9,116 nucleotides of DNA from a virus (taxonomy: Duplodnaviria; Heunggongvirae; Uroviricota; Caudoviricetes). The first letter of the stretch is position 1. Each line of letters starts with the position of its first letter. A program made the position numbers and the translations under genes. The DNA is taken from IMG/VR virus record IMGVR_UViG_2579779052_000010. One strand, 5' to 3'. The notes beneath the pieces are model-generated. The model ran no database searches. It saw only the letters and a list, made by a program, of their open reading frames with translations, and was not told the origin of the DNA. Of this stretch, positions 1 to 9,116 are shown piece after piece.

Positions 1-483
1 ATGACGAAGAAAAAAGCACATAAACCTGGTTCAGCGACCATCGCGCTTAACAAGCGCGCCCGTCACGAATACTTTATCGAAGAAGAGTTCGAAGCGGGAC
101 TTGCCCTGCAAGGCTGGGAAGTTAAATCCCTGCGCGCAGGAAAAGCCAATATCAGCGACAGCTACGTCCTTCTGCGTGACGGAGAGGCATTTCTGTTTGG
201 CGCTAACATCACGCCAATGGCCGTGGCCTCCACGCATGTGGTGTGCGATCCTACCCGTACCCGCAAGTTACTTCTCAACCAGCGCGAACTGGACTCATTG
301 TACGGTCGCGTCAATCGAGAAGGCTATACCGTAGTGGCGCTCTCCCTGTACTGGAAAAATGCCTGGTGCAAAGTGAAAATCGGCGTCGCCAAAGGTAAGA
401 AACAGCACGATAAACGTTCAGATATCAAAGAGCGCGAATGGCAGGTGGATAAAGCGCGTATCATGAAAAATGCCCACCGTTAA
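1..483 (+). CDS. smpB: SsrA-binding protein SmpB (complete, 160 aa)
   Basis: Translation [30 protein letters not shown]... matches enterobacterial SmpB as I recall it; stop TAA at 481-483; tmRNA gene lies immediately downstream, the conserved smpB-ssrA arrangement. Confidence 0.96.
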
Positions 484-697: not shown

Positions 698-1060
698 GGG
701 GCTGATTCTGGATTCGACGGGATTTGCGAAACCCAAGGTGCATGCCGAGGGGCGGTTGGCCTCGTAAAAAGCCGCAAAAAATAGTCGCAAACGACGAAAA
801 CTACGCTTTAGCAGCTTAATAACCTGCTTAGAGCCCTCTCTCCCTAGCCTCCGCTCTTAGGACGGGGATCAAGAGAGGTCAAACCCAAAAGAGATCGCGT
901 GGAAGCCCTGCCTGGGGTTGAAGCGTTAAAACTTAATCAGGCTAGTTTGTTAGTGGCGTGTCCGTCCGCAGCTGGCAAGCGAATGTAAAGACTGACTAAG
1001 CATGTAGTACCGAGGATGTAGGAATTTCGGACGCGGGTTCAACTCCCGCCAGCTCCACCA
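698..1060 (+). ncRNA. ssrA: tmRNA (transfer-messenger RNA, SsrA), 363 nt
   Basis: Starts GGGGCTGATTCTGGATTCGACGGG and ends GGTTCAACTCCCGCCAGCTCCACCA (tRNA-Ala-like acceptor/T-arm with encoded CCA). Internal tag frame present. Sequence agrees with E. coli tmRNA from memory. Confidence 0.96.
787..819 (+). other. tmRNA tag reading frame GCA AAC GAC GAA AAC TAC GCT TTA GCA GCT TAA (ANDENYALAA-stop)
   Basis: Direct translation from resume codon GCA at 787 to TAA at 817-819; canonical enterobacterial degradation tag. Confidence 0.9.
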
Positions 1061-1463: not shown

Positions 1464-2561
1464 TTATTCCATTTCGAGATCGTCTATTTTCACCTCAAAA
1501 TCCAGGCTGGTCGTAAATCCATTATCTGCAGTAACGGTATGGGTCAGCGTGGTAATGGTCCATTCAGCATCATCAATCTGCTTTTTGAACCCCTGCACCT
1601 TTACCGGCATTTCCGTATAGAGATCAGCGCGCCCTTCTGCCAGCTGCATAGAGAATGAGGCCACACCACGCTGCAGGCGCTCCCATTGCATTTTTGCTGC
1701 CCGTTCTGCATTGCTTCGGTTCGCATAAGTCCGACTGAGGACCAGCACGTTTTCATCCGTACCGACCAGGTAATCCCCCTGTTTCTCCTCCGGCGTTTTT
1801 GTCGTTGTGGTTTTACGCTTCCGCTTTACCTTTACCGCTTCTTTTTTTACCGGTTCCCGCGTATGTAGCCAGCTGGCAATAACGCCGGTATAGGCGCCAC
1901 GGTCTGCCAGAGTGAAGCGGTGGCCATCGCCATCTTTACGGGTAATCGTGATAACCGGCAGCGCTTTGCCACTGGCAGTTTTGCCCTGGCCCTGCCGGAG
2001 AAACAGCAGATTGCCATCCTTCACAGATGCAATGGCGCCATACTGGCGCGCCAGCCGCATCAGGAAACTGGCGTCGCTCTCGTTTGTCTGGTCGATGTGA
2101 TCGATCGCTTTGTCGGTCAGGTCTTTGCCCAGCGCCATTTTCAGGTTATGGCGCCCGGCTATTTCTTTCACCACCTCCCCCACGGTTGTCTGGTGCCATG
2201 ACTTTTCACGCCGGGTATTCAGCGTTTCCCGGAAGTCTGCGCTGCGGGCGCGAATGGTCAGACGGTCAGGCGCGCCACTGTGTTCAATTTCATCTACCGT
2301 ATAACCGCCCTTTGGGAACAGCGGCTGACCTTTCCAGCCCAGCGCCACGGTGATCACCGCTCCACGGCGCGGCAGCACAATCAGACCGTCCGCGTCGTCC
2401 AGCTCCAGATCAAGCTGGTCAGCCTCAAAGCCCCGGTTATCGGTCAGGGTCAGGCTCATCAGGCGCTTATCCAGCACCGTTGTAATATCCTTACCCTCAA
2501 TCGTGATGCTGAATGCTGGCGTTTTGCTGCCGGTATTCAGCAGCCCTGAATCAAAACTCAT
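1464..2561 (-). CDS. D: Phage late control gene D protein (P2 gpD-like tail protein), 365 aa
   Basis: Size, position (last tail gene before ogr) and sequence character match P2 gpD. Start ATG overlaps the U stop as ATGA at 2561-2558 (translational coupling). Confidence 0.88.
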   Translation of the reverse strand: MSFDSGLLNTGSKTPAFSITIEGKDITTVLDKRLMSLTLTDNRGFEADQLDLELDDADGLIVLPRRGAVITVALGWKGQPLFPKGGYTVDEIEHSGAPDRLTIRARSADFRETLNTRREKSWHQTTVGEVVKEIAGRHNLKMALGKDLTDKAIDHIDQTNESDASFLMRLARQYGAIASVKDGNLLFLRQGQGKTASGKALPVITITRKDGDGHRFTLADRGAYTGVIASWLHTREPVKKEAVKVKRKRKTTTTKTPEEKQGDYLVGTDENVLVLSRTYANRSNAERAAKMQWERLQRGVASFSMQLAEGRADLYTEMPVKVQGFKKQIDDAEWTITTLTHTVTADNGFTTSLDFEVKIDDLEME

Positions 2562-3043
2562 GACAGTAACCCTCCCACCGTTCCGCTGACGCTGCCAATT
2601 ACAGACGTTGCCGTGTCCTGCAGAATGCCCAGCTGATCGCTAAGGCTGCCGAACATATCTGCCAGCGACTCATCAACCCTTTTCAGTGACAATGAAAATT
2701 CAATCCGGCGCGGCATCCCGTCACGGAAAAATTCTGCTTTCGTCTGGTTCAGCCCCTCGATCACATACATGCCATAAATCGTGCCACTTCCCTCGATCAG
2801 GGGCCACGCCTTGCCCAGCTCCGCCATCTGTTCCAGCGCCAACATAGACAGCCTGCCGCCGGTGATTTCCGGTAACAGCACCCCGGATAGCGTCAGCGTG
2901 TCATTATCCGGCCCCAGAAATTGCGTGGTGGCGCGACGGTTTACGCGGCTGTTTGTCGCATGGCGCCAGCTTCGCTGATACTGCAGCTCCTGATAAGGGA
3001 CCGTGCGCAGCTCGAAAACAAATAATCCCAGCACCATCATCAT
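2558..3043 (-). CDS. U: Phage tail protein U (P2 gpU-like), 161 aa
   Basis: MMMVLGLFVFELRTVPYQ... N-terminus and size typical of P2 gpU. Start overlaps the T stop as ATGA at 3043-3040. Confidence 0.86.
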   Translation of the reverse strand: MMMVLGLFVFELRTVPYQELQYQRSWRHATNSRVNRRATTQFLGPDNDTLTLSGVLLPEITGGRLSMLALEQMAELGKAWPLIEGSGTIYGMYVIEGLNQTKAEFFRDGMPRRIEFSLSLKRVDESLADMFGSLSDQLGILQDTATSVIGSVSGTVGGLLS

Positions 3044-5835
3044 TCGTCATAGCCCCCCTGATCGCTGTAGTTACTCCGGGCCTTCGCCCTGATCCGACGG
3101 TCACGCTCATCGAGCTGGCGCGCCACCTCTCGCGCAATGTCCTGCGCATTCTGCCCTGGCTGCGCCTGGATAATAATCTGCGTGGGCGCGTCCACATGGA
3201 AAACTGGCTGCGCGCTTGCGCCCTGCCCCATCATCACGGCGCCCGATTTCACCGGCAGGCTAAACGGATGAAGCGGGGCCGCATCGACCGGCGCCGCAGC
3301 CACCCCCATCATCCCGGCAACCACCGAGGCCAGCGCCGCTGTGCGTCGCCTGCTGGTTACGTTTACCGGGCCGTTGACAATCTCCGGCCCATTCTCCCCC
3401 ACGATGCCAAACTGCCCGCGCGGGATATTGCCGCCGGTGTCGTACATTCCCGCGTAAGCCGGGAATCCGCCGGGCGGCAACATCACGCTGCCGTTACCGC
3501 CCAATGTGGCAGGCGTCTGATTTGGCAGCCTGGCGCTGGCGGCCTCTTTGTTAACCAGACCAAGTTTATCCAGCAACCAGACCACACCGGATTTCAGAGA
3601 CTCCAGCGGATGCAGTGCCATATTCAGCCCTTCCGCCAGCATTTCCCCGAACAAACGCCCCATTGATGCCGCGCTCTGCAGCTCTGCCGCCGTCGATTTA
3701 ACTGGCGTCAGCAAGTCGGTAAACCAGCCCCACAACTCCCTGACCTTATCCCCTACCCACTGAAAAATGGGCATTAGCGGGGTGAAGGCTGACAGGATCG
3801 GCGCAGCTGCCGCTTTGAACCCTTCCACCACGCCCCCCAGAAAGGCGCTGATAGGTTGCCAGTATTTCCAGACCACCATCGCCACCCCAGCCAGCGCAGC
3901 CACCACCAGACCGATCGGACTCAACAGCGCGCCCAACAGACCGCCCACAGAAAACAGCGCCACACGCAGCACTGCCAGCGGCCCGGAAACCAGCAAACGC
4001 AGCACCCCACCCGTGCGGGTCGCTGCAGCTGCAGCAGAAGGTAAAGCCTTAACCGCCAGCATCGACAGCGCGAACCGGATCACCGCAATCGGCCCCAGCA
4101 CTGCAGCCACAGCCACCGCCAGCGTACCCAGCCCGACAGTGATCGCCGCCGTCGCCGCAGCCACTTTCATCAGCGTGCCAGCCAGCACGGGATTCTGCTC
4201 AACCCAGCGCCGCAGCGCCCCGGTCACGCCTTTAACCATGCTCATGATATCCATCAGCGGCTGGCGCAGCGTTTCCCCCAGGCTGCTGAAAGCGTTCTGC
4301 GCGCCCGTCTTAACCAGCAACCACTGCGCAGACAATGAATCTTTATTAATGTCGGATTCTTTCTGCATTGAGCCGTTCGCATCAGCTCCGGCGGTGAGTT
4401 TCAACTGGCGCTGCAGCTCCGGCAGGTTGTTAGCCAGTTTCGCGGCATCATCGCCAAACTCTTTACCAAAAATCATCGTCATTGCAGACAGGCGCTTATC
4501 CTGCGGCAGCTTGTTGACCTTCTCCAGTACGCGCTGAATAGTGCCCATGGCATCCGTGGTCATCTGCTTTTCGATCTCTGCCGGATTGAGTTTCAGCAGG
4601 TCCATACCTTCAAAAAAGCGTTTGCTTTGCATGGTGGCAATGGAAAGCTCACGCACCATGGCATTTGAAGCACTGGCGGCAATTTCAGGCGCGGCGCCCA
4701 GAGAAAGGAAAGTTGAACCCAGCGCCGCCGCTTTGCGGAAGTCGAGGCGGTCAGCCACGCCCCCCATGCGCTGCAGGACGTTGATAATATCCCCGCCCTT
4801 TGACATGGCGTTATCGTCCAGGTAGTTCAGCGCATCGCCCAGCTGCTCAATGTTGCGCGTAGGCACTTTATACAGCTGCGCTATTTTTCCTAACCCCTCC
4901 GCCAGTTCATCTGCAGGCAGCTCAAAGGCCGTTGCTGCTTTAGCCGCGGTGGAGGCAAAGGCCAGCAGATCGCGCTTCTGGTCCTCAAAAGGATCATCCT
5001 GATTGATCACGCCCATGCGGGCGCCCCCCTCAACCAATGCCGCGTAGTCAATCGCGCCGTTCTCCATCGGCAGCTGCTCACTGGCTGCTTTGATGGCATC
5101 CTGCATTTCATAAAACTGCTTTGTGCGGTTGCCGTTGTCGTCACGCAGCCCATTAACCTGTTTTGCCACGCCTTTCATGGCATCTTCCATGCTGGCATAA
5201 CTCCTGACCGCAGCCACAACCGGCGCCCCCATTGCTGCGCCAGCGGCTGCCGTTGTCGCCCCGGCGCCAGCGATGCGATCACGAACTTCAAGACGGCGGG
5301 AATACTGCTCACGGACCGCATTCATCCGCGCCTGCTGTTCCCCCAGGCGTTTGAGTGATTTTTGCTGGCGGTCCAGCGCCTGCCGCGTTTCGTCAGCATT
5401 CTGCCGCAGCTCGCGCTGGGCGCTGCTAAGCTTGCGGGTATCCAGCCCTGCTTCATTCAGGGCCAGCCGCTGTTTTTGTACGGACTGACGCAAGCCGTTG
5501 TACTGCCCCTGCAGCTCATTAACACGGTTTTTTGCCTGTTCAAGCAGCCTGGCCTGCTGCGCCGTAGGGCGGTTGGTTGCTGAAAACTGCGTTGCAAGTT
5601 TTGCGGCCTCTTCGCGCGCAGCTTTCAGGTTTTGACCGGTGACGGCAAGCTGTCCGTTCGCCTTACGAAAGCCATCAATACGGGCGGCCTGAGAATCAAG
5701 CGCTTTAAGGCTGGCACGACTTTGCTGGATTGCGGCTGCCAGCTCCTTAGAGCTGGCCTGCGCAGAACGGAAGGGGCGGGTGAGTTTATCCACCGCGTTC
5801 AGAATGACCTGCAGGCGCAGGTTGTTATCGCTCAT
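3040..5835 (-). CDS. T: Tail tape measure protein (P2 gpT-like), 931 aa
   Basis: Long protein with a Q/R/A/L-rich, probably coiled-coil N-terminal part, an Ala/Gly-rich central stretch and hydrophobic Ala/Val/Leu segments later on; located between E/E' and U as in P2. Confidence 0.9.
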   Translation of the reverse strand: MSDNNLRLQVILNAVDKLTRPFRSAQASSKELAAAIQQSRASLKALDSQAARIDGFRKANGQLAVTGQNLKAAREEAAKLATQFSATNRPTAQQARLLEQAKNRVNELQGQYNGLRQSVQKQRLALNEAGLDTRKLSSAQRELRQNADETRQALDRQQKSLKRLGEQQARMNAVREQYSRRLEVRDRIAGAGATTAAAGAAMGAPVVAAVRSYASMEDAMKGVAKQVNGLRDDNGNRTKQFYEMQDAIKAASEQLPMENGAIDYAALVEGGARMGVINQDDPFEDQKRDLLAFASTAAKAATAFELPADELAEGLGKIAQLYKVPTRNIEQLGDALNYLDDNAMSKGGDIINVLQRMGGVADRLDFRKAAALGSTFLSLGAAPEIAASASNAMVRELSIATMQSKRFFEGMDLLKLNPAEIEKQMTTDAMGTIQRVLEKVNKLPQDKRLSAMTMIFGKEFGDDAAKLANNLPELQRQLKLTAGADANGSMQKESDINKDSLSAQWLLVKTGAQNAFSSLGETLRQPLMDIMSMVKGVTGALRRWVEQNPVLAGTLMKVAAATAAITVGLGTLAVAVAAVLGPIAVIRFALSMLAVKALPSAAAAATRTGGVLRLLVSGPLAVLRVALFSVGGLLGALLSPIGLVVAALAGVAMVVWKYWQPISAFLGGVVEGFKAAAAPILSAFTPLMPIFQWVGDKVRELWGWFTDLLTPVKSTAAELQSAASMGRLFGEMLAEGLNMALHPLESLKSGVVWLLDKLGLVNKEAASARLPNQTPATLGGNGSVMLPPGGFPAYAGMYDTGGNIPRGQFGIVGENGPEIVNGPVNVTSRRRTAALASVVAGMMGVAAAPVDAAPLHPFSLPVKSGAVMMGQGASAQPVFHVDAPTQIIIQAQPGQNAQDIAREVARQLDERDRRIRAKARSNYSDQGGYDE

Positions 5836-6276
5836 CGCTGGCTCCGCTTCTCTGTATCGCTTTGTACCGCCATTCCAGCACTTCGGTCAGCGGCATAACG
5901 TCAGTGACGGAGGGCGGCCAGTGAAAAATGGTGGCAATATCTGCCACCAAATCATCTACCGTCAGGCAGTCGGTAAACCGGCAAGCACCGACTTCTTCAA
6001 CAAAAAAGTGACCACCTCAACAGACAACGAGGTGAGATCGGCGGGGTCCAGCTCTGCCATTTCCTGCGGCGTCAGCGTCGGGGTGGAAATGCGGGGGATC
6101 ACCGTCATCATGGCGCCCACATCCATATCCATAAGGGCCTGCAGGCGCGTGCCACGCAGTGCGCCGGATTGCGGCTTACGCAGTACAATTTCAGTGATTT
6201 CAGTTTTACCACGCTTGATTGGGGTATCCAGCTGCACAGTCTTTTCAGTCAGTTTATCGCTCATTATCTTTTCCAT
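5825..6276 (-). CDS. gpE+E' frameshift fusion (about 150 aa: E residues 1-92, then 58 aa from the -1 frame)
   Basis: Hand translation of the -1 frame from 6001 gives VEEVGACRFTDCLTVDDLVADIATIFHWPPSVTDVMPLTEVLEWRYKAIQRSGASDER-stop, ending 11 nt inside the T start. This fills the otherwise non-coding 126-bp E-T gap. Confidence 0.65.
5962..6276 (-). CDS. E: Tail assembly chaperone gpE (zero-frame product), 104 aa from first ATG
   Basis: Small ORF between FII and T as in P2. A second in-frame ATG at 6264-6262 (MSDKL...) may be the true start. Stop TGA at 5964-5962. Confidence 0.82.
   Translation of the reverse strand: MEKIMSDKLTEKTVQLDTPIKRGKTEITEIVLRKPQSGALRGTRLQALMDMDVGAMMTVIPRISTPTLTPQEMAELDPADLTSLSVEVVTFLLKKSVLAGLPTA
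6001..6007 (-). other. -1 programmed frameshift slippery heptamer T TTT TTG (minus strand) in the 3' end of E
   Basis: Minus-strand codons ACT TTT TTG (Thr-Phe-Leu, residues 90-92 of E) form an X XXY YYZ heptamer. The -1 frame stays open for 58 codons to TAA at 5827-5825. A TTTTTTG site is the reported P2 E/E' recoding signal. Confidence 0.7.
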
Positions 6277-6313
6277 TAGGGTTATTGCGCGGCCTGCCGC
6301 GCCATCAGGTTAA

Positions 6314-6829
6314 TCAGAGGCCAATTGCGTTGCGGTGTTCTTCCAGCAGGTCCACACCATCACAAATTTCGACCATATTGATAACATCGACCTCATAGAG
6401 CACCTCACCGGCGATCGTCAGCTTCGCATAGGTATTGGTGCTGCTGACCTTCGTGGAATTGCTCTCGCCCGTTTTCAGTTCGCCAGCATCCACCTCTTTA
6501 TGGCGCCCACGTACAACCAGCTCAACCGCCTGCACTTCGCCGGTATCGTCACGCTGAATTGAGCCAGTGAAACGCAGCTGGATGCCGTCGACAGTGGCTT
6601 TCCCCATCTGCTTGTATAGCAGTGACTCCATACCGCCAATTGAGAATTCGGTATCCAGCGCGCCATCATCCAGCCCCAAATCCACATCTGCAGATCCCGG
6701 CATCCCGCCGCCGCGATATTTTTCAAACTTGCGTGAATACTTTGGCAAGGTGATTGACTCAACAATCCCCATCCAGTTGTTCCCGTCGTTAAACAGGTTC
6801 AGGTGCTTTAACTTGCGTGGTAATGCCAT
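6314..6829 (-). CDS. FII: Major tail tube protein (P2 gpFII-like), 171 aa
   Basis: MALPRKLKHLNLFNDGNNWMG... resembles P2 FII; strong RBS AAGGGGGA upstream of ATG at 6829-6827; directly downstream of the sheath gene. Confidence 0.92.
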   Translation of the reverse strand: MALPRKLKHLNLFNDGNNWMGIVESITLPKYSRKFEKYRGGGMPGSADVDLGLDDGALDTEFSIGGMESLLYKQMGKATVDGIQLRFTGSIQRDDTGEVQAVELVVRGRHKEVDAGELKTGESNSTKVSSTNTYAKLTIAGEVLYEVDVINMVEICDGVDLLEEHRNAIGL

Positions 6830-6838
6830 GTATCCCCC

Positions 6839-8011
6839 TTATGCGCTGACGCGGCTGGCAAAATCGACCAGATAGCGATCGGTGATGCGCTGGCGCAGCA
6901 TCAGATTTTCAAGCGGCGGCACTGGCGTATAGTCGTAGTCGATCGCCAGTTTCCCGGCTTTCAGGGTGTCCTTATCGTTCACCGACTCATCCAGCCAGCA
7001 ATCACCACCAATCAGATAGCCCTGGTTAACCAGGCTGCGCATTTTGGCGCGGATACCTTCGATAATGTCGCGGGCCAGTGATGGATTCAGCGGCATATCA
7101 ACTGCCCACATATGCGCTTCCGCCATGGTGTCAGCCAGCACCTGCGCCGTGCGGGTGTAGTTTTCAAACTGGAACAACGGATCATCACTGAGGCAACGGG
7201 AACCCCAGAAGCGGAAACCGTCTTTACGAATGAGGGTGGTGATATCGTTCTGGTTAAGCAGTCCCGCATCCGTTGCCGGGTCCTGCAGATCCCAGGACAC
7301 ATCAGCGGACAGGCCAGTGACGCCATTCACGCCCACGTTAGACAGGGTTTTGTGCCAGCCGGTCTGCTCGTCAATTTTGGCGCGCATACCCAGCGCGCGG
7401 GCGGTGGCAAAAGCCGTCGCATCCGCCTGCAGCACGGTGTCAAAGTTGATAAAGTCAGGCCAAATCAACATCCCTTCACGCTGGCTGAAATTCTCACGAT
7501 AGGCGATCGCTTCCTCCATCGTTTTGCAGCCATAGGCGGAAAGGTAAGCGAACCCGCGCAGGCTCTGCGCCACGCTAAGCAGTTCAGTGGAAACCGCCTG
7601 CGTATCATGGCCCGGCACACCGAGGATGCGCGGCTTAACGCCCAGCTGCGACTGCGCAGACAGCAGCGCTTTGATGCCCGTTTTTTTACCGTCTGCCGTG
7701 ACGCCGCCGATAATATTGGCGGTGGTTTCAGCTTCGGTTTCACCCTGGGCCACGCGGATAACCACGGTGACAGGCTTTGCCTGATCTGCAATAGCATCCA
7801 GCGAGCGGGCCAGCGTGCCGGACTCGCCTGCTTTGCCGCTGGCGGTCAGCACATCGGTCAGAAGGACCGGCTTATTGAGGGGGAACACGGACGCATCGGC
7901 ATCATCGCCGGTGCAGACCATGCCCACGATGGCTGCGCTCACCGTGGTAATCGTTCGGGTGCCTTCGTTGATTTCTTCAACGCGCACGCCGTGGTGGTAA
8001 TCCTGAGCCAT
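6839..8011 (-). CDS. FI: Contractile tail sheath protein (P2 gpFI-like), 390 aa
   Basis: [19 protein letters not shown]...LIWPDF...[16 protein letters not shown]...[13 protein letters not shown] closely resembles P2 FI as recalled; RBS GGAGA about 9 nt before ATG at 8011-8009. Confidence 0.93.
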
Positions 8012-8033
8012 AAGGCATTATCTCCGGTTGACA

Positions 8034-8101
8034 GGGATGCCTTATGTTCTGGTTGATACGCACGCGGCGCACGTGTTTCTGCCTGTGCCATCACTGACAC
8101 A
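8034..8101 (-). promoter_or_regulatory. Candidate Ogr-dependent late promoter for the FI-FII-E-T-U-D operon, with TGT-N12-ACA dyad at 8084-8101
   Basis: TGTGCCATCACTGACACA contains the TGT-N12-ACA element that P2/P4 late promoters carry near -55. It lies 73-90 nt upstream of the FI ATG with -10-like CATAAG (8046-8041) about 45-50 nt downstream of the dyad centre. The motif is short and could occur by chance. Confidence 0.4.
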
Positions 8102-8113
8102 ATAACGGGGTTT

Positions 8114-8671
8114 TCAGCCTGGCTGGCTGGCGGGAAATTTCTTATACAGCGTGGAAATACCCACATCAAAAAGCAGCGCCACGCGCTGACGTGTTTCACC
8201 TGCAGCCAGTAACCGCCCGGCCTGCGCCCATTGTTCCTGTGACAACTTTGGACGGCGCCCGCCGATTCTCCCCTGCGCCCTTGCTGCTGCCAATCCCGCA
8301 CGGGTTCTTTCCACAATCAGTTCACGCTCCATTTCAGCCAGGGCGCCCATAATGTGGAAGAAAAAGCGCCCCATGGGTGTCGAGGTATCAATGCTGTCCG
8401 TCAGACTGCGGAAATTAACAGCCCGCTGCCGCAGTTCCTCCACGAGAATCACCAGATGCCGCATACTGCGCCCAAGTCGATCAAGCTTCCAGACAACCAG
8501 CGTATCTCCTGGCGACAGGGTTTTAAGCAGCTTTTTTAATCCGGGGCGGTCCGATGTTTTACCGCTCATTTTATCCTCAAATATCAGCTCACATCCTGAC
8601 CGTTCCAGCGCATCACGCTGCAGTGCAGTATTTTGTTCATTTGTTGATACACGTATATAGCCTACTAACAT
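8114..8671 (-). CDS. Serine recombinase, DNA invertase family (Hin/Gin/Cin/Pin-like), 185 aa
   Basis: N-terminus MLVGYIRVSTNEQNTALQRDAL with catalytic-serine context (RVST), typical small-resolvase/invertase length and a C-terminal HTH-like segment (GETRQRVALLFDVGISTLYK). RBS GGGAGG 4 nt before ATG at 8671-8669. Confidence 0.92.
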   Translation of the reverse strand: MLVGYIRVSTNEQNTALQRDALERSGCELIFEDKMSGKTSDRPGLKKLLKTLSPGDTLVVWKLDRLGRSMRHLVILVEELRQRAVNFRSLTDSIDTSTPMGRFFFHIMGALAEMERELIVERTRAGLAAARAQGRIGGRRPKLSQEQWAQAGRLLAAGETRQRVALLFDVGISTLYKKFPASQPG

Positions 8672-8723
8672 GCTGCCTCCCTGATAAAAGGCAGCATTGT
8701 GCTACTCAACGATAGATTTTTGA

Positions 8724-9116
8724 TCAAAGGCTAAAAATTTCGTTAATCCAAGCGGAGGTTTCAGGAGAGCGTACAAATGGGCCATGAACACTCGCGTAAC
8801 ACCCCTTTGATGCCACATCCCGCTCAAGGTTAATACCGATCCAATCAACCGAGCAGATTACTCTTTCATCATCTTCGACAACACCTTTTACGATTCCTAT
8901 ATGCTTAATCGCAATCATAGGGTTGCCACGGCCTTTCATCCTTTTTATGGCGATTCGATCTCCAGGCCTGATTTCTTTTGCCGCTTCGAATTGAACTTTG
9001 TCTTCATCAATTCCCCATCCCAAAACCCAGATGTGGTTTTTAACGAACTTCTCATCCTGGTGGTCAACACCATTCCAAGACGCGCCAACTAACCAATAAC
9101 GCTGCTGATTATCCAT
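8724..9116 (-). CDS. Hypothetical protein, 130 aa, AT-rich cargo gene; loosely beta-barrel (PUA/EVE-like) pattern, unverified
   Basis: Intact ORF with ATG exactly at the window edge and stop TGA at 8726-8724. Visibly AT-richer than the tail genes. No similarity to P2 structural or tail-fibre assembly proteins that I can recognise. YWLVGASW...GDRIAIK...IGIVKG is only loosely reminiscent of PUA-like folds. Confidence 0.6.
   Translation of the reverse strand: MDNQQRYWLVGASWNGVDHQDEKFVKNHIWVLGWGIDEDKVQFEAAKEIRPGDRIAIKRMKGRGNPMIAIKHIGIVKGVVEDDERVICSVDWIGINLERDVASKGCYASVHGPFVRSPETSAWINEIFSL

Follow-up and report, generated by a model that had tools for sequence, protein, structure and literature searches.

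A very likely P2-type E/E+E' programmed -1 ribosomal frameshift in the tail arm of a Fels-2-like prophage

The window, i.e. the whole stretch of 9,116 nucleotides analysed here, is the FI-FII-E-T-U-D-ogr arm of a Fels-2-like prophage that adjoins ssrA. Within this arm, a programmed -1 ribosomal frameshift of the P2 type very likely joins gene E to the extension E', so that two products, E and E+E', would be made from a common start. Taken alone, the slippery heptamer and the open -1 frame behind it are not statistically unusual and are weak evidence. The decisive support for the predicted frameshift is the homology of the extension and the conservation of the site across related phages.

The E/E' locus and its slip site

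E and E' are placed between FII, the tube gene, and T, the tape-measure gene, in the canonical order of tube, chaperone and tape measure. The features of the locus are:

3040-5835, minus strand: gene T, tape measure protein of 931 aa (Pfam PF10145 PhageMin_Tail), starting at ATG 5835
5825-6001, minus strand: E' extension, 58 codons of the -1 frame from the re-read G6001, then TAA 5827-5825
5962-6000, minus strand: dual-coded overlap, with the E tail LKKSVLAGLPTA and its stop in the zero frame and the start of E' in the -1 frame
5962-6264, minus strand: gene E, zero-frame product, putative tail assembly chaperone of 100 aa from the conserved ATG 6264
6001-6007, minus strand: slippery heptamer T TTT TTG in the X XXY YYZ register, predicted -1 shift site
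6017-6019, minus strand: TGA closing the -1 frame 10 nt upstream of the heptamer, the 5' limit for a productive shift
6314-6829, minus strand: gene FII, tail tube protein (Pfam PF04985, 2.7e-58), the neighbour upstream of E

The heptamer TTTTTTG lies at 6007-6001 at ORF offset 269 (269 mod 3 = 2), with the zero-frame codons AC[T TTT TTG]. Because the TGA at 6019-6017 closes the -1 frame upstream, a shift yielding the extension is confined to 6016-5965. Read from G6001, the -1 frame holds 58 sense codons (VEEVGAC...GASDER) before TAA 5827-5825, and its end overlaps the start of T by 11 nt. Between the stop of E at 5964-5962 and the start of T there is a gap of 126 bp (5836-5961), which is filled by E'. 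The first-pass annotation had described a heptamer in the X XXY YYZ register at codons 90-92, a -1 frame of 58 codons ending 11 nt inside T, and an extension accounting for the seemingly empty gap between E and T. All of this was recovered at the same coordinates, with the codons counted from ATG 6276.

The start codon of E is a different matter. The 104-aa minus-strand ORF at 6276-5962, which begins at an in-frame upstream ATG and had been taken as E, does exist. In most close relatives, however, E starts at the equivalent of ATG 6264 (MSDK...) with cAGGAAAAGAac before it, and 'atGGAAAAGAta' in the window is the homologue of the Shine-Dalgarno (SD) region that precedes the E start in these relatives. 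Since the start is conserved at this position, E probably begins at ATG 6264 rather than 6276, giving an E of 100 aa, an E+E' of 146 aa and a heptamer at codons 86-88.

Several counts within the window put the heptamer and the open frame into perspective. TTTTTTG occurs four times against 2.25 expected, and 27% of positions drawn at random have an open frame of 58 codons or more. The seven genes hold 12 in-register heptamers, and a long -1 extension follows only the one in E (58 codons vs 28 or fewer). Only two of the 12 lie near the 3' end of a gene, and the other one, in T, extends by a single codon.

Relatives of E and E' and the conserved slip site

Both parts of the predicted fusion belong to known families. 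The E protein matches Pfam PF10109 Phage_TAC_7 (E = 8.8e-19, 67.8 bits vs a cutoff of 25) and PHROG 103 'tail protein' (4.7e-42), while the extension matches Pfam PF06528 Phage_P2_GpE (E = 5.2e-19, 67.9 bits vs a cutoff of 23) as well as PHROGs 1756 and 6416. The alignment of the extension to P2 gpE', suggested as a check in the first-pass annotation, is gapless. Over the whole fused product, 68/139 positions (49%) are identical to P2 gpE+E' (E = 1e-49), again gapless through the junction, where ...VVTFL-VEEVGAC... is collinear with ...VVGFL-VAELGAV... of P2. The pattern V-x-E-x-G..F..L-x-V-D-D in the -1 frame after the heptamer is common to the window and P2, and the ADIATIFHW motif of E' is near-invariant among relatives. 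A tblastn search with the fused protein found 414 phage records, 349 of which cover at least 80% of the query; the full-length matches among those listed are split in two pieces, as two frames predict. For E, E' and the fusion, neither the PDB sequence search nor NCBIfam returned an informative match, and no solved structure of a relative was found in the PDB by sequence.

The conservation of the site was assessed in a comparative set of 77 loci with both E and E' parts, ranging from Enterobacterales to Burkholderiales and Neisseriales, in which the identity of E is 37-98%. In every one of them E' is encoded in the -1 frame, the -1 ORF begins either upstream of the heptamer or right at it (exactly at the heptamer in the relatives L041, L044 and L070), and TTTTTTN stands in register at the homologous site (G in 62 loci, A in 11, T in 2 and C in 2). 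The first T of the heptamer is the third position of its codon in 77/77 loci, the XXY codon for Phe is TTT in all of them, and the next codon is always TTN. The background in these genes is 19% for T at third positions and 17% for Leu encoded by TTR. Because the codon with the first T encodes 11 different amino acids and yet always ends in T, selection at the slip site acts on nucleotides and not on amino acids. Past the site, the zero-frame tail of E varies among relatives in sequence and in length (6-19 aa), whereas the -1 frame can be aligned starting with the codon directly past the heptamer.

It is extremely unlikely that E' is a separate small gene translated without frameshifting from an internal start at TTG 5950 or GTG 5947. 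A 41-aa ORF (5950-5825) is present, PGAP-style records annotate a CDS of this kind as a 39-45-aa 'GpE family phage tail protein', and a GTG, ATG or TTG is found 17-18 codons past the junction in most relatives. However, this internal start is not conserved, with Ile (ATC/ATT/ATA) or Gln codons in its place in at least 15 loci of several clades. In addition, the -1 frame is open and conserved at the protein level from the heptamer onwards (the gapless 49% identity to P2), and none of the 77 loci has a stop between the heptamer and the internal start. A separate gene would also leave the invariant in-register T6 unexplained, and the fusion product is described in the P2 record and the literature.

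Another explanation for the conserved run is slippage of RNA polymerase, which would add one U on the T6 run in some mRNAs and lead to the product ...TFF-VEEV.... A single-nucleotide insertion in the run gives the same frame. What is conserved is a homopolymer run, its conservation alone does not separate slippage of the polymerase from that of the ribosome, and seven loci carry runs of 7 T or more at the site. Nevertheless, we give this reading hardly any probability. The run has only six T in most loci, while productive transcriptional slippage in bacteria uses runs of about 8-9 or more, and no lineage has lengthened it much, contrary to what selection for polymerase slippage would produce. 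The X XXY YYZ register is also kept in 77/77 loci despite the 11 amino acids encoded before the run, and the P2 case is called translational in its record and in the literature.

For the ribosomal frameshift, the expected sequence of events is as follows. Most ribosomes would translate from ATG 6264 to TGA 5964-5962 and release the chaperone E of about 100 aa. In a minority of ribosomes positioned at U UUU UUG, the P-site tRNA-Phe on UUU and the A-site tRNA-Leu on UUG would both slip back by one nucleotide and re-pair on UUU UUU. These ribosomes would read 58 more codons to TAA 5827-5825, giving an E+E' of about 146 aa that has its N-terminus in common with E and the junction ...VVTFL|VEEVGAC.... 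The residue at the junction depends on the mode of slippage: Leu would indicate tandem slippage (...VVTFLVEEVGACR), and Phe would indicate slippage in the P site only or an insertion by RNA polymerase (...VVTFFVEEVGACR), and the sequence alone fits both.

Since the element is an integrated prophage adjoining ssrA and is known here from its DNA sequence only, it could also be a fossil, i.e. a defective prophage whose inherited heptamer and open -1 frame are no longer expressed or functional. This is very unlikely, as each of the seven tail-arm genes of the window (FI, FII, E/E', T, U, D, ogr) is an intact ORF of full length that matches its family strongly, and E and E' are free of disruptions and 98% identical to their counterparts in a Kluyvera prophage.

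RNA elements around the slip site

Downstream of the heptamer, a candidate stimulator was predicted in the form of a bulged hairpin of 10 pairs (7+3 bp) that begins 7 nt after the heptamer and is no stabler than shuffled sequences (z = -0.34). RNAalifold found no consensus structure downstream of the heptamer among relatives. In the 48 distinct relatives compared, the pairs of the hairpin form in only 67% of cells and covary little, and it was rejected as a stimulator. Likewise, the long-range stem of the P2 type (CUGAUGGCGG...CCGCCAUCAG), which is striking in P2 and 186, shows covariation across the alignment that is not above controls, and it was rejected as a general feature. The Rfam search returned no frameshift element and only a sub-threshold chance match to PhrS.

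Upstream, an SD-like GAGGTGG is located 5 nt before the heptamer, and in about 75% of the loci the complementarity to the anti-SD at the 3' end of 16S rRNA peaks sharply 9-15 nt before it. The spacing of the SD-like element in dnaX is about 10 nt, and that of GAGGTGG is shorter. Synonymous resampling did not support an upstream stimulator (p = 0.45 for the window and 0.1-0.4 for most loci), and GAGGTGG is explained by the conserved Glu-Val-Val codons (E/K-V-V in relatives) together with local codon usage. Stimulated -1 sites of the dnaX or IS type have a conserved 3' stem-loop or pseudoknot at 5-9 nt from the heptamer and/or an SD-like element about 10 nt upstream, and neither was supported here. 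The absence of a hairpin has been noted for P2-like phages of Burkholderia and, citing Xu et al. 2004, for P2 itself in the relevant passage of PMC3091744. Furthermore, U_UUU_UUG is not among the heptamers ranked as highly efficient in E. coli (Sharma et al. 2014). Because of this ranking and the lack of a supported stimulator, the shift is probably inefficient, which fits a chaperone needed in low amounts.

A second structure lies within E' itself, 45 nt after the heptamer. It is an 8-bp hairpin at 5949-5929 (UGGUGGCA-GAUAU-UGCCACCA), followed by U5 in this window, whose stability exceeds that of synonymous recodings of its peptide, and one relative carries a compensatory double change in it. 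We regard it as unlikely that this hairpin is an extra, undescribed RNA element of the frameshift cassette in the Fels-2-like clade. If it were, it might act as a partial terminator or as a processing or stability element that lowers the dosage of T, U and D, or alternatively influence ribosome traffic at the slip site from a distance.

Comparison with known systems and consequences for annotation

The closest described system is that of P2, whose reference record (NC_001895) contains a joined E+E' CDS labelled '-1 frameshift' with the frameshift site beside the same TTTTTTG. In the relevant passage of PMC3091744, which cites Christie et al. 2002 and Xu et al. 2004, a -1 shift at TTTTTTG in P2 yields E (91 aa) and E+E' (142 aa). 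The records of Fels-2 and 186 describe the same slippage, and the same heptamer is found at the homologous site in P2, Fels-2 and 186. The window and P2 agree in the heptamer and its register, in the placement of the site close to the 3' end of E, in the gene order FI-FII-E-T-U-D-ogr with the same Pfam families, and in an extension (58 aa here vs 57 in P2) that ends just inside T. They differ in the length of E (100 aa here vs 91 aa in P2) and of its zero-frame tail past the slip site (12 aa vs 6 aa), and the TAA of E' comes three nucleotides later here, with an overlap with T of 11 nt vs 8 nt in P2. An overlap of 8 nt is found in 46 relatives and one of 11 nt in 6/77 loci, the window included.

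The closest named phage is Fels-2, a Salmonella phage of the genus Felsduovirus (loci STM2699 / STM2697.1), with an identity of 83.5% at the nucleotide level, 94% for E and 91% for E', and the same slip-site context GAGGTGGTNAC TTTTTTG TTGAAGAAGTCGG. Its record notes that E+E' arises by translational slippage. Fels-2 is integrated beside ssrA, like this prophage. In contrast to the window, its E' has 57 aa, ends in TGA and overlaps T by 8 nt; the window and two relatives from Kluyvera (L005) and Citrobacter (L010) have one extra E' codon and a TAA.

The G/GT frameshift of the lambda tail assembly chaperone (Levin et al. 1993; Xu et al. 2004, 2013, 2014) is outlined in the part of PMC5009743 that deals with it. 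Lambda gpG and gpGT are also two proteins with a common N-terminus, encoded between the major tail (tube) and tape-measure genes, and a -1 shift that occurs at low frequency close to the end of the first ORF produces the longer one. On the other hand, lambda is a siphovirus and this element is a P2-like one with a contractile tail, the slip site is G GGA AAG there and T TTT TTG here, and no sequence similarity was detected between the gpG/gpGT and E/E+E' systems. The first-pass annotation had likened the locus to both P2 E/E' and lambda G/GT; for P2 the likeness extends to an identical heptamer, register and position, and for lambda to the logic and genomic position. E and E+E' would be tail assembly chaperones, judged from their homology with P2 gpE/gpE+E' and the analogy to lambda gpG/gpGT. 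In chaperone pairs of the lambda G/GT class, neither product is part of the virion. Binding of the tape measure and recruitment of the tube have been demonstrated for lambda (PMC5009743); by analogy, the common E part would attach to T, the tape measure protein, and the E' part would bring in the tube protein FII. A fixed low shift rate would then set the ratio of E to E+E' for correct tail assembly.

The E/E+E' frameshift predicted here is ordinary and already described, and current understanding is unchanged by these findings. They do bear on annotation. The statement that the extension is routinely missed by ORF callers applies to the joined CDS, but not to the distal part of E', which is usually called as a separate CDS of 39-45 aa; curated records annotate the E+E' join. 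The locus should be annotated with a single joined E+E' CDS that shifts by -1 at 6001, in place of a stray ORF of 41 aa or an empty gap of 126 bp, and the start of E should probably be set to 6264. The survey also cleanly illustrates how selection on a slip site acts at the nucleotide level, with an in-register T6 invariant in 77 loci and the preceding residue varying among 11 amino acids. Most lineages keep the heptamer ending in G, which is absent from the highly efficient list of Sharma et al. 2014, and this fits selection for a low ratio of E+E' to E.

Arrangement of E and E' in the window

The -1 frameshift arrangement is present as the first-pass annotation observed it. The ORF listing contains a minus-strand ORF of 104 aa from ATG 6276 to TGA 5964-5962. 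The heptamer TTTTTTG at 6007-6001 lies at offset 269 of this ORF, so that the zero-frame codons read AC[T TTT TTG] in exact X XXY YYZ register. From G6001, the -1 frame runs through 58 sense codons (VEEVGACRFTDCLTVDDLVADIATIFHWPPSVTDVMPLTEVLEWRYKAIQRSGASDER) to TAA 5827-5825. Since the 931-aa downstream ORF, the tape measure gene T, begins with ATG 5835, this E' extension terminates 11 nt within T, and the gap between the E stop and the T start covers 126 bp (5836-5961). An upstream TGA at 6019-6017 shuts the -1 frame, which leaves an interval of about 50 nt, heptamer included, for a productive shift. All of these coordinates, from the heptamer to the gap, proved correct on re-reading.

The extent given for E, 5962-6276, is right for the ORF and its stop and probably wrong for its start. 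In most Fels-2-like relatives, E starts with MSDK..., preceded by cAGGAAAAGAacATG. The window carries atGGAAAAGAtaATG at the aligned position. ATG 6276 thus falls within the segment homologous to their ribosome-binding region, and ATG 6264, conserved in the relatives, is the probable start. With this start, E would have 100 aa, the heptamer would be codons 86-88, and E+E' would have 146 aa; the frameshift is unaffected. The extra in-frame ATG 6276 (minus strand) is common to the window and the related Kluyvera locus L005 and arose where other relatives have the ribosome-binding region of E. ORF callers will tend to choose it, over-extending E by four codons.

In Pfam, the zero-frame protein has a match to PF10109 (Phage_TAC_7, 'tail assembly chaperone proteins E, or 41 or 14'; 8.8e-19) and the extension one to PF06528 (Phage_P2_GpE; 5.2e-19), with which PHROGs concur (103 for E; 1756 and 6416 for E'). 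The neighbouring features, with phage genes assigned by family matches and the invertase by Pfam, are as follows.

Features surrounding E and E' in the window
1-483, plus strand: smpB, host gene
698-1060, plus strand: ssrA tmRNA, host gene, tag ANDENYALAA
1177-1398, minus strand: Ogr/Delta zinc-finger protein, last phage gene
1464-2561, minus strand: D
2558-3043, minus strand: U
3040-5835, minus strand: tape measure T
6314-6829, minus strand: tube FII
6839-8011, minus strand: tail sheath FI
8114-8671, minus strand: Hin/Gin-type serine DNA invertase (Resolvase and HTH_7, 1.4e-51), just upstream of the sheath gene

This set of tail genes, with ssrA and smpB beyond it, identifies the window as the late-gene arm of a P2-like prophage adjoining ssrA. 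The prophage end adjoins both host genes (1-1398), and ssrA is also the integration site of Fels-2. That the prophage has decayed is disfavoured because every tail-arm gene is intact. The invertase presumably governs the inversion of a tail-fibre segment outside the window; a search of 8000-9116 for inverted repeats gave none. The closest named phage is Fels-2 (83.5 % nucleotide identity across the E region), and the closest genome locus belongs to a Kluyvera sichuanensis prophage whose E and E' are each 98 % identical.

Homology and conservation of the slip site

The sequence features alone are no more than expected by chance, and the evidence proper is homology and conservation. TTTTTTG occurs four times in the window (2.25 expected), and about 27 % of random positions at its 55 % G+C stay open for at least 58 codons. 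The seven minus-strand genes hold 12 in-register X XXY YYZ heptamers, and only that of E has a long -1 extension (58 codons; 1-28 for the others). Two of the 12 lie near a gene 3' end, the E site and one in T that extends a single codon. The invertase gene has the classic efficient -1 heptamer A AAA AAG in register at its codon 45 (8531-8537, minus strand). Since the -1 frame stops there after 2 codons, a shift would merely truncate the protein, and this heptamer is probably incidental.

The P2 reference record NC_001895 lists a 91-aa E alongside a joined CDS for E+E' ('shares amino terminus with gpE; -1 frameshift') and marks, as a misc_feature adjoining the heptamer, the 'site of -1 translational frameshift'; the Fels-2 and 186 record notes describe the same slippage. 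All three phages carry TTTTTTG in the window's register at the homologous codon, and their extensions, terminating just within T, are 57 aa compared to 58 in the window. According to a passage of PMC3091744, which cites Christie et al. 2002 as well as Xu et al. 2004, the P2 shift takes place at TTTTTTG, with products of 91 aa (E) and 142 aa (E+E'). The alignment with P2 gpE' proposed earlier as a check was run with the fused product against P2 E+E' and was gapless through the junction (window ...VVTFLVEEVGA..., P2 ...VVGFLVAELGA...), with 68/139 identical positions and E = 1e-49. Together with both Pfam matches and the shared heptamer register, this bears out the claimed P2-type arrangement.

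A tblastn search of phage records with the fused protein matched 414 records, 349 with at least 80 % query coverage. Among the matches listed, the full-length ones were split into two pieces, as expected from two reading frames. The survey drew on 76 loci in bacterial contigs, one genome per species, and on four phage loci; 77 loci, window included, had both parts. Their E identities range from 98 % down to 37 %, and they cover Enterobacterales, Pasteurellales, Orbales, Burkholderiales, Neisseriales and one metagenome-assembled Rhodobacteraceae genome. Every one of the 77 has E' in the -1 frame of E, a -1 ORF whose opening lies at the heptamer or before it, and an in-register TTTTTTN at one and the same alignment position (last base G in 62, A in 11, T in 2, C in 2). 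The codon of the first T encodes 11 amino acids (Thr, Gly, Ser, Asn, Leu, Pro, Phe, Ile, Tyr, Asp, Ala) and ends in T in every locus; the second is always TTT, never TTC, and the third always TTN. Outside the slip site, the same genes have T at 19 % of third positions, and TTR makes up 17 % of their Leu codons. The constraint therefore acts on nucleotides rather than residues. E' overlaps T by 8 nt in 46 loci and by 11 nt in 6 of the 77, window included.

Automated annotation usually treats E' as separate and, by implication, self-initiated, so the earlier claim that ORF callers miss the extension needs a small correction. Independent initiation of E' would leave the invariant T6 unexplained. 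Furthermore, the internal start codon is not conserved in relatives, whereas protein conservation in the -1 frame starts directly after the heptamer: the frame is alignable from the first codon and contains a near-invariant ADIATIFHW motif, and the zero-frame tail is variable (6-19 aa). RNA polymerase slippage on the T6 run is also compatible with conservation by itself, but is unlikely to make the frame change, since the run is only six long, keeps its codon register and is not lengthened in most lineages. The frameshift interpretation is thus supported, with two small corrections concerning the start codon and the pipeline treatment of E'.

Probable slippage mechanism and predicted RNA structures

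In the best-supported account of the ribosomal frameshift, P-site tRNA-Phe and A-site tRNA-Leu would slip -1 simultaneously on U UUU UUG, with the predicted junction ...Thr-Phe-Leu|Val-Glu-Glu.... Re-pairing is likewise possible on the variants TTTTTTA, TTTTTTT and TTTTTTC of relatives. The efficient E. coli heptamers listed by Sharma et al. 2014 (PMC4066793) include H_HH.U_UU.Y and do not include U_UU.U_UU.G. Most loci end the heptamer in G, which hints that a low shift rate may be wanted, as in lambda with its G:GT ratio of about 30:1 (PMC5009743).

Two candidate stimulators found no support. A hairpin predicted 7 nt after the heptamer was no more stable than shuffled sequence (z = -0.34) and not conserved in relatives (67 % of cells paired, few compensatory changes), for which RNAalifold gave no consensus structure. 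Within the E region, complementarity to the 16S rRNA 3' end is greatest at the SD-like GAGGTGG (6008-6018 region, minus strand), which lies 5 nt before the heptamer, and a peak 9-15 nt upstream occurs in about 75 % of loci. In synonymous resampling, the conserved Glu/Lys-Val-Val and local codon usage often yield this signal (window p = 0.45), which explains it. Rfam contained no relevant element. The slip site apparently functions with no recognisable stimulator, in line with what is reported for P2-like phages; the same passage of PMC3091744 states for Burkholderia P2-like phages that the slip site is conserved and no downstream hairpin was found.

A hairpin within E' (5929-5949, minus strand; UGGUGGCA-GAUAU-UGCCACCA, then UUUUU), flagged as terminator-like, is the one mildly surprising feature. 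In 48 distinct relatives, pairing holds in 89 % of cells, and three pairs are changed on both sides, for example in the related locus L041 (GTC/GCG instead of GTG/GCC). Its stability exceeds that of synonymous recodings in the DLVADIATIF (Fels-2-like) clade (window p = 0.0175); it is absent in the P2/186 clade, and the U-tract is not conserved. Lying 45 nt downstream, it is too distant for a classical frameshift stimulator. A second, GC-rich hairpin (GCGCGG-CAGG-CCGCGC; 6287-6302, minus strand) lies between FII and E. Relatives keep a hairpin at this position, with compensatory changes in the arms (GGCACGG...CGTGCC in locus L022, GGTGCGG...CCGCACC in locus L034), and the 186 record annotates the equivalent spot as 'tI; partial terminator'; no T-tract follows it in the window.

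Judged from their P2 homologues and the analogous lambda system, E and E+E' would act as chaperones for the tape measure protein, with E' as the part that would recruit the tube protein; a PDB sequence search found no solved structure of any E/E' relative. The E/E+E' frameshift belongs to the textbook features of P2-like phages and is annotated already; its value here is one of annotation only.
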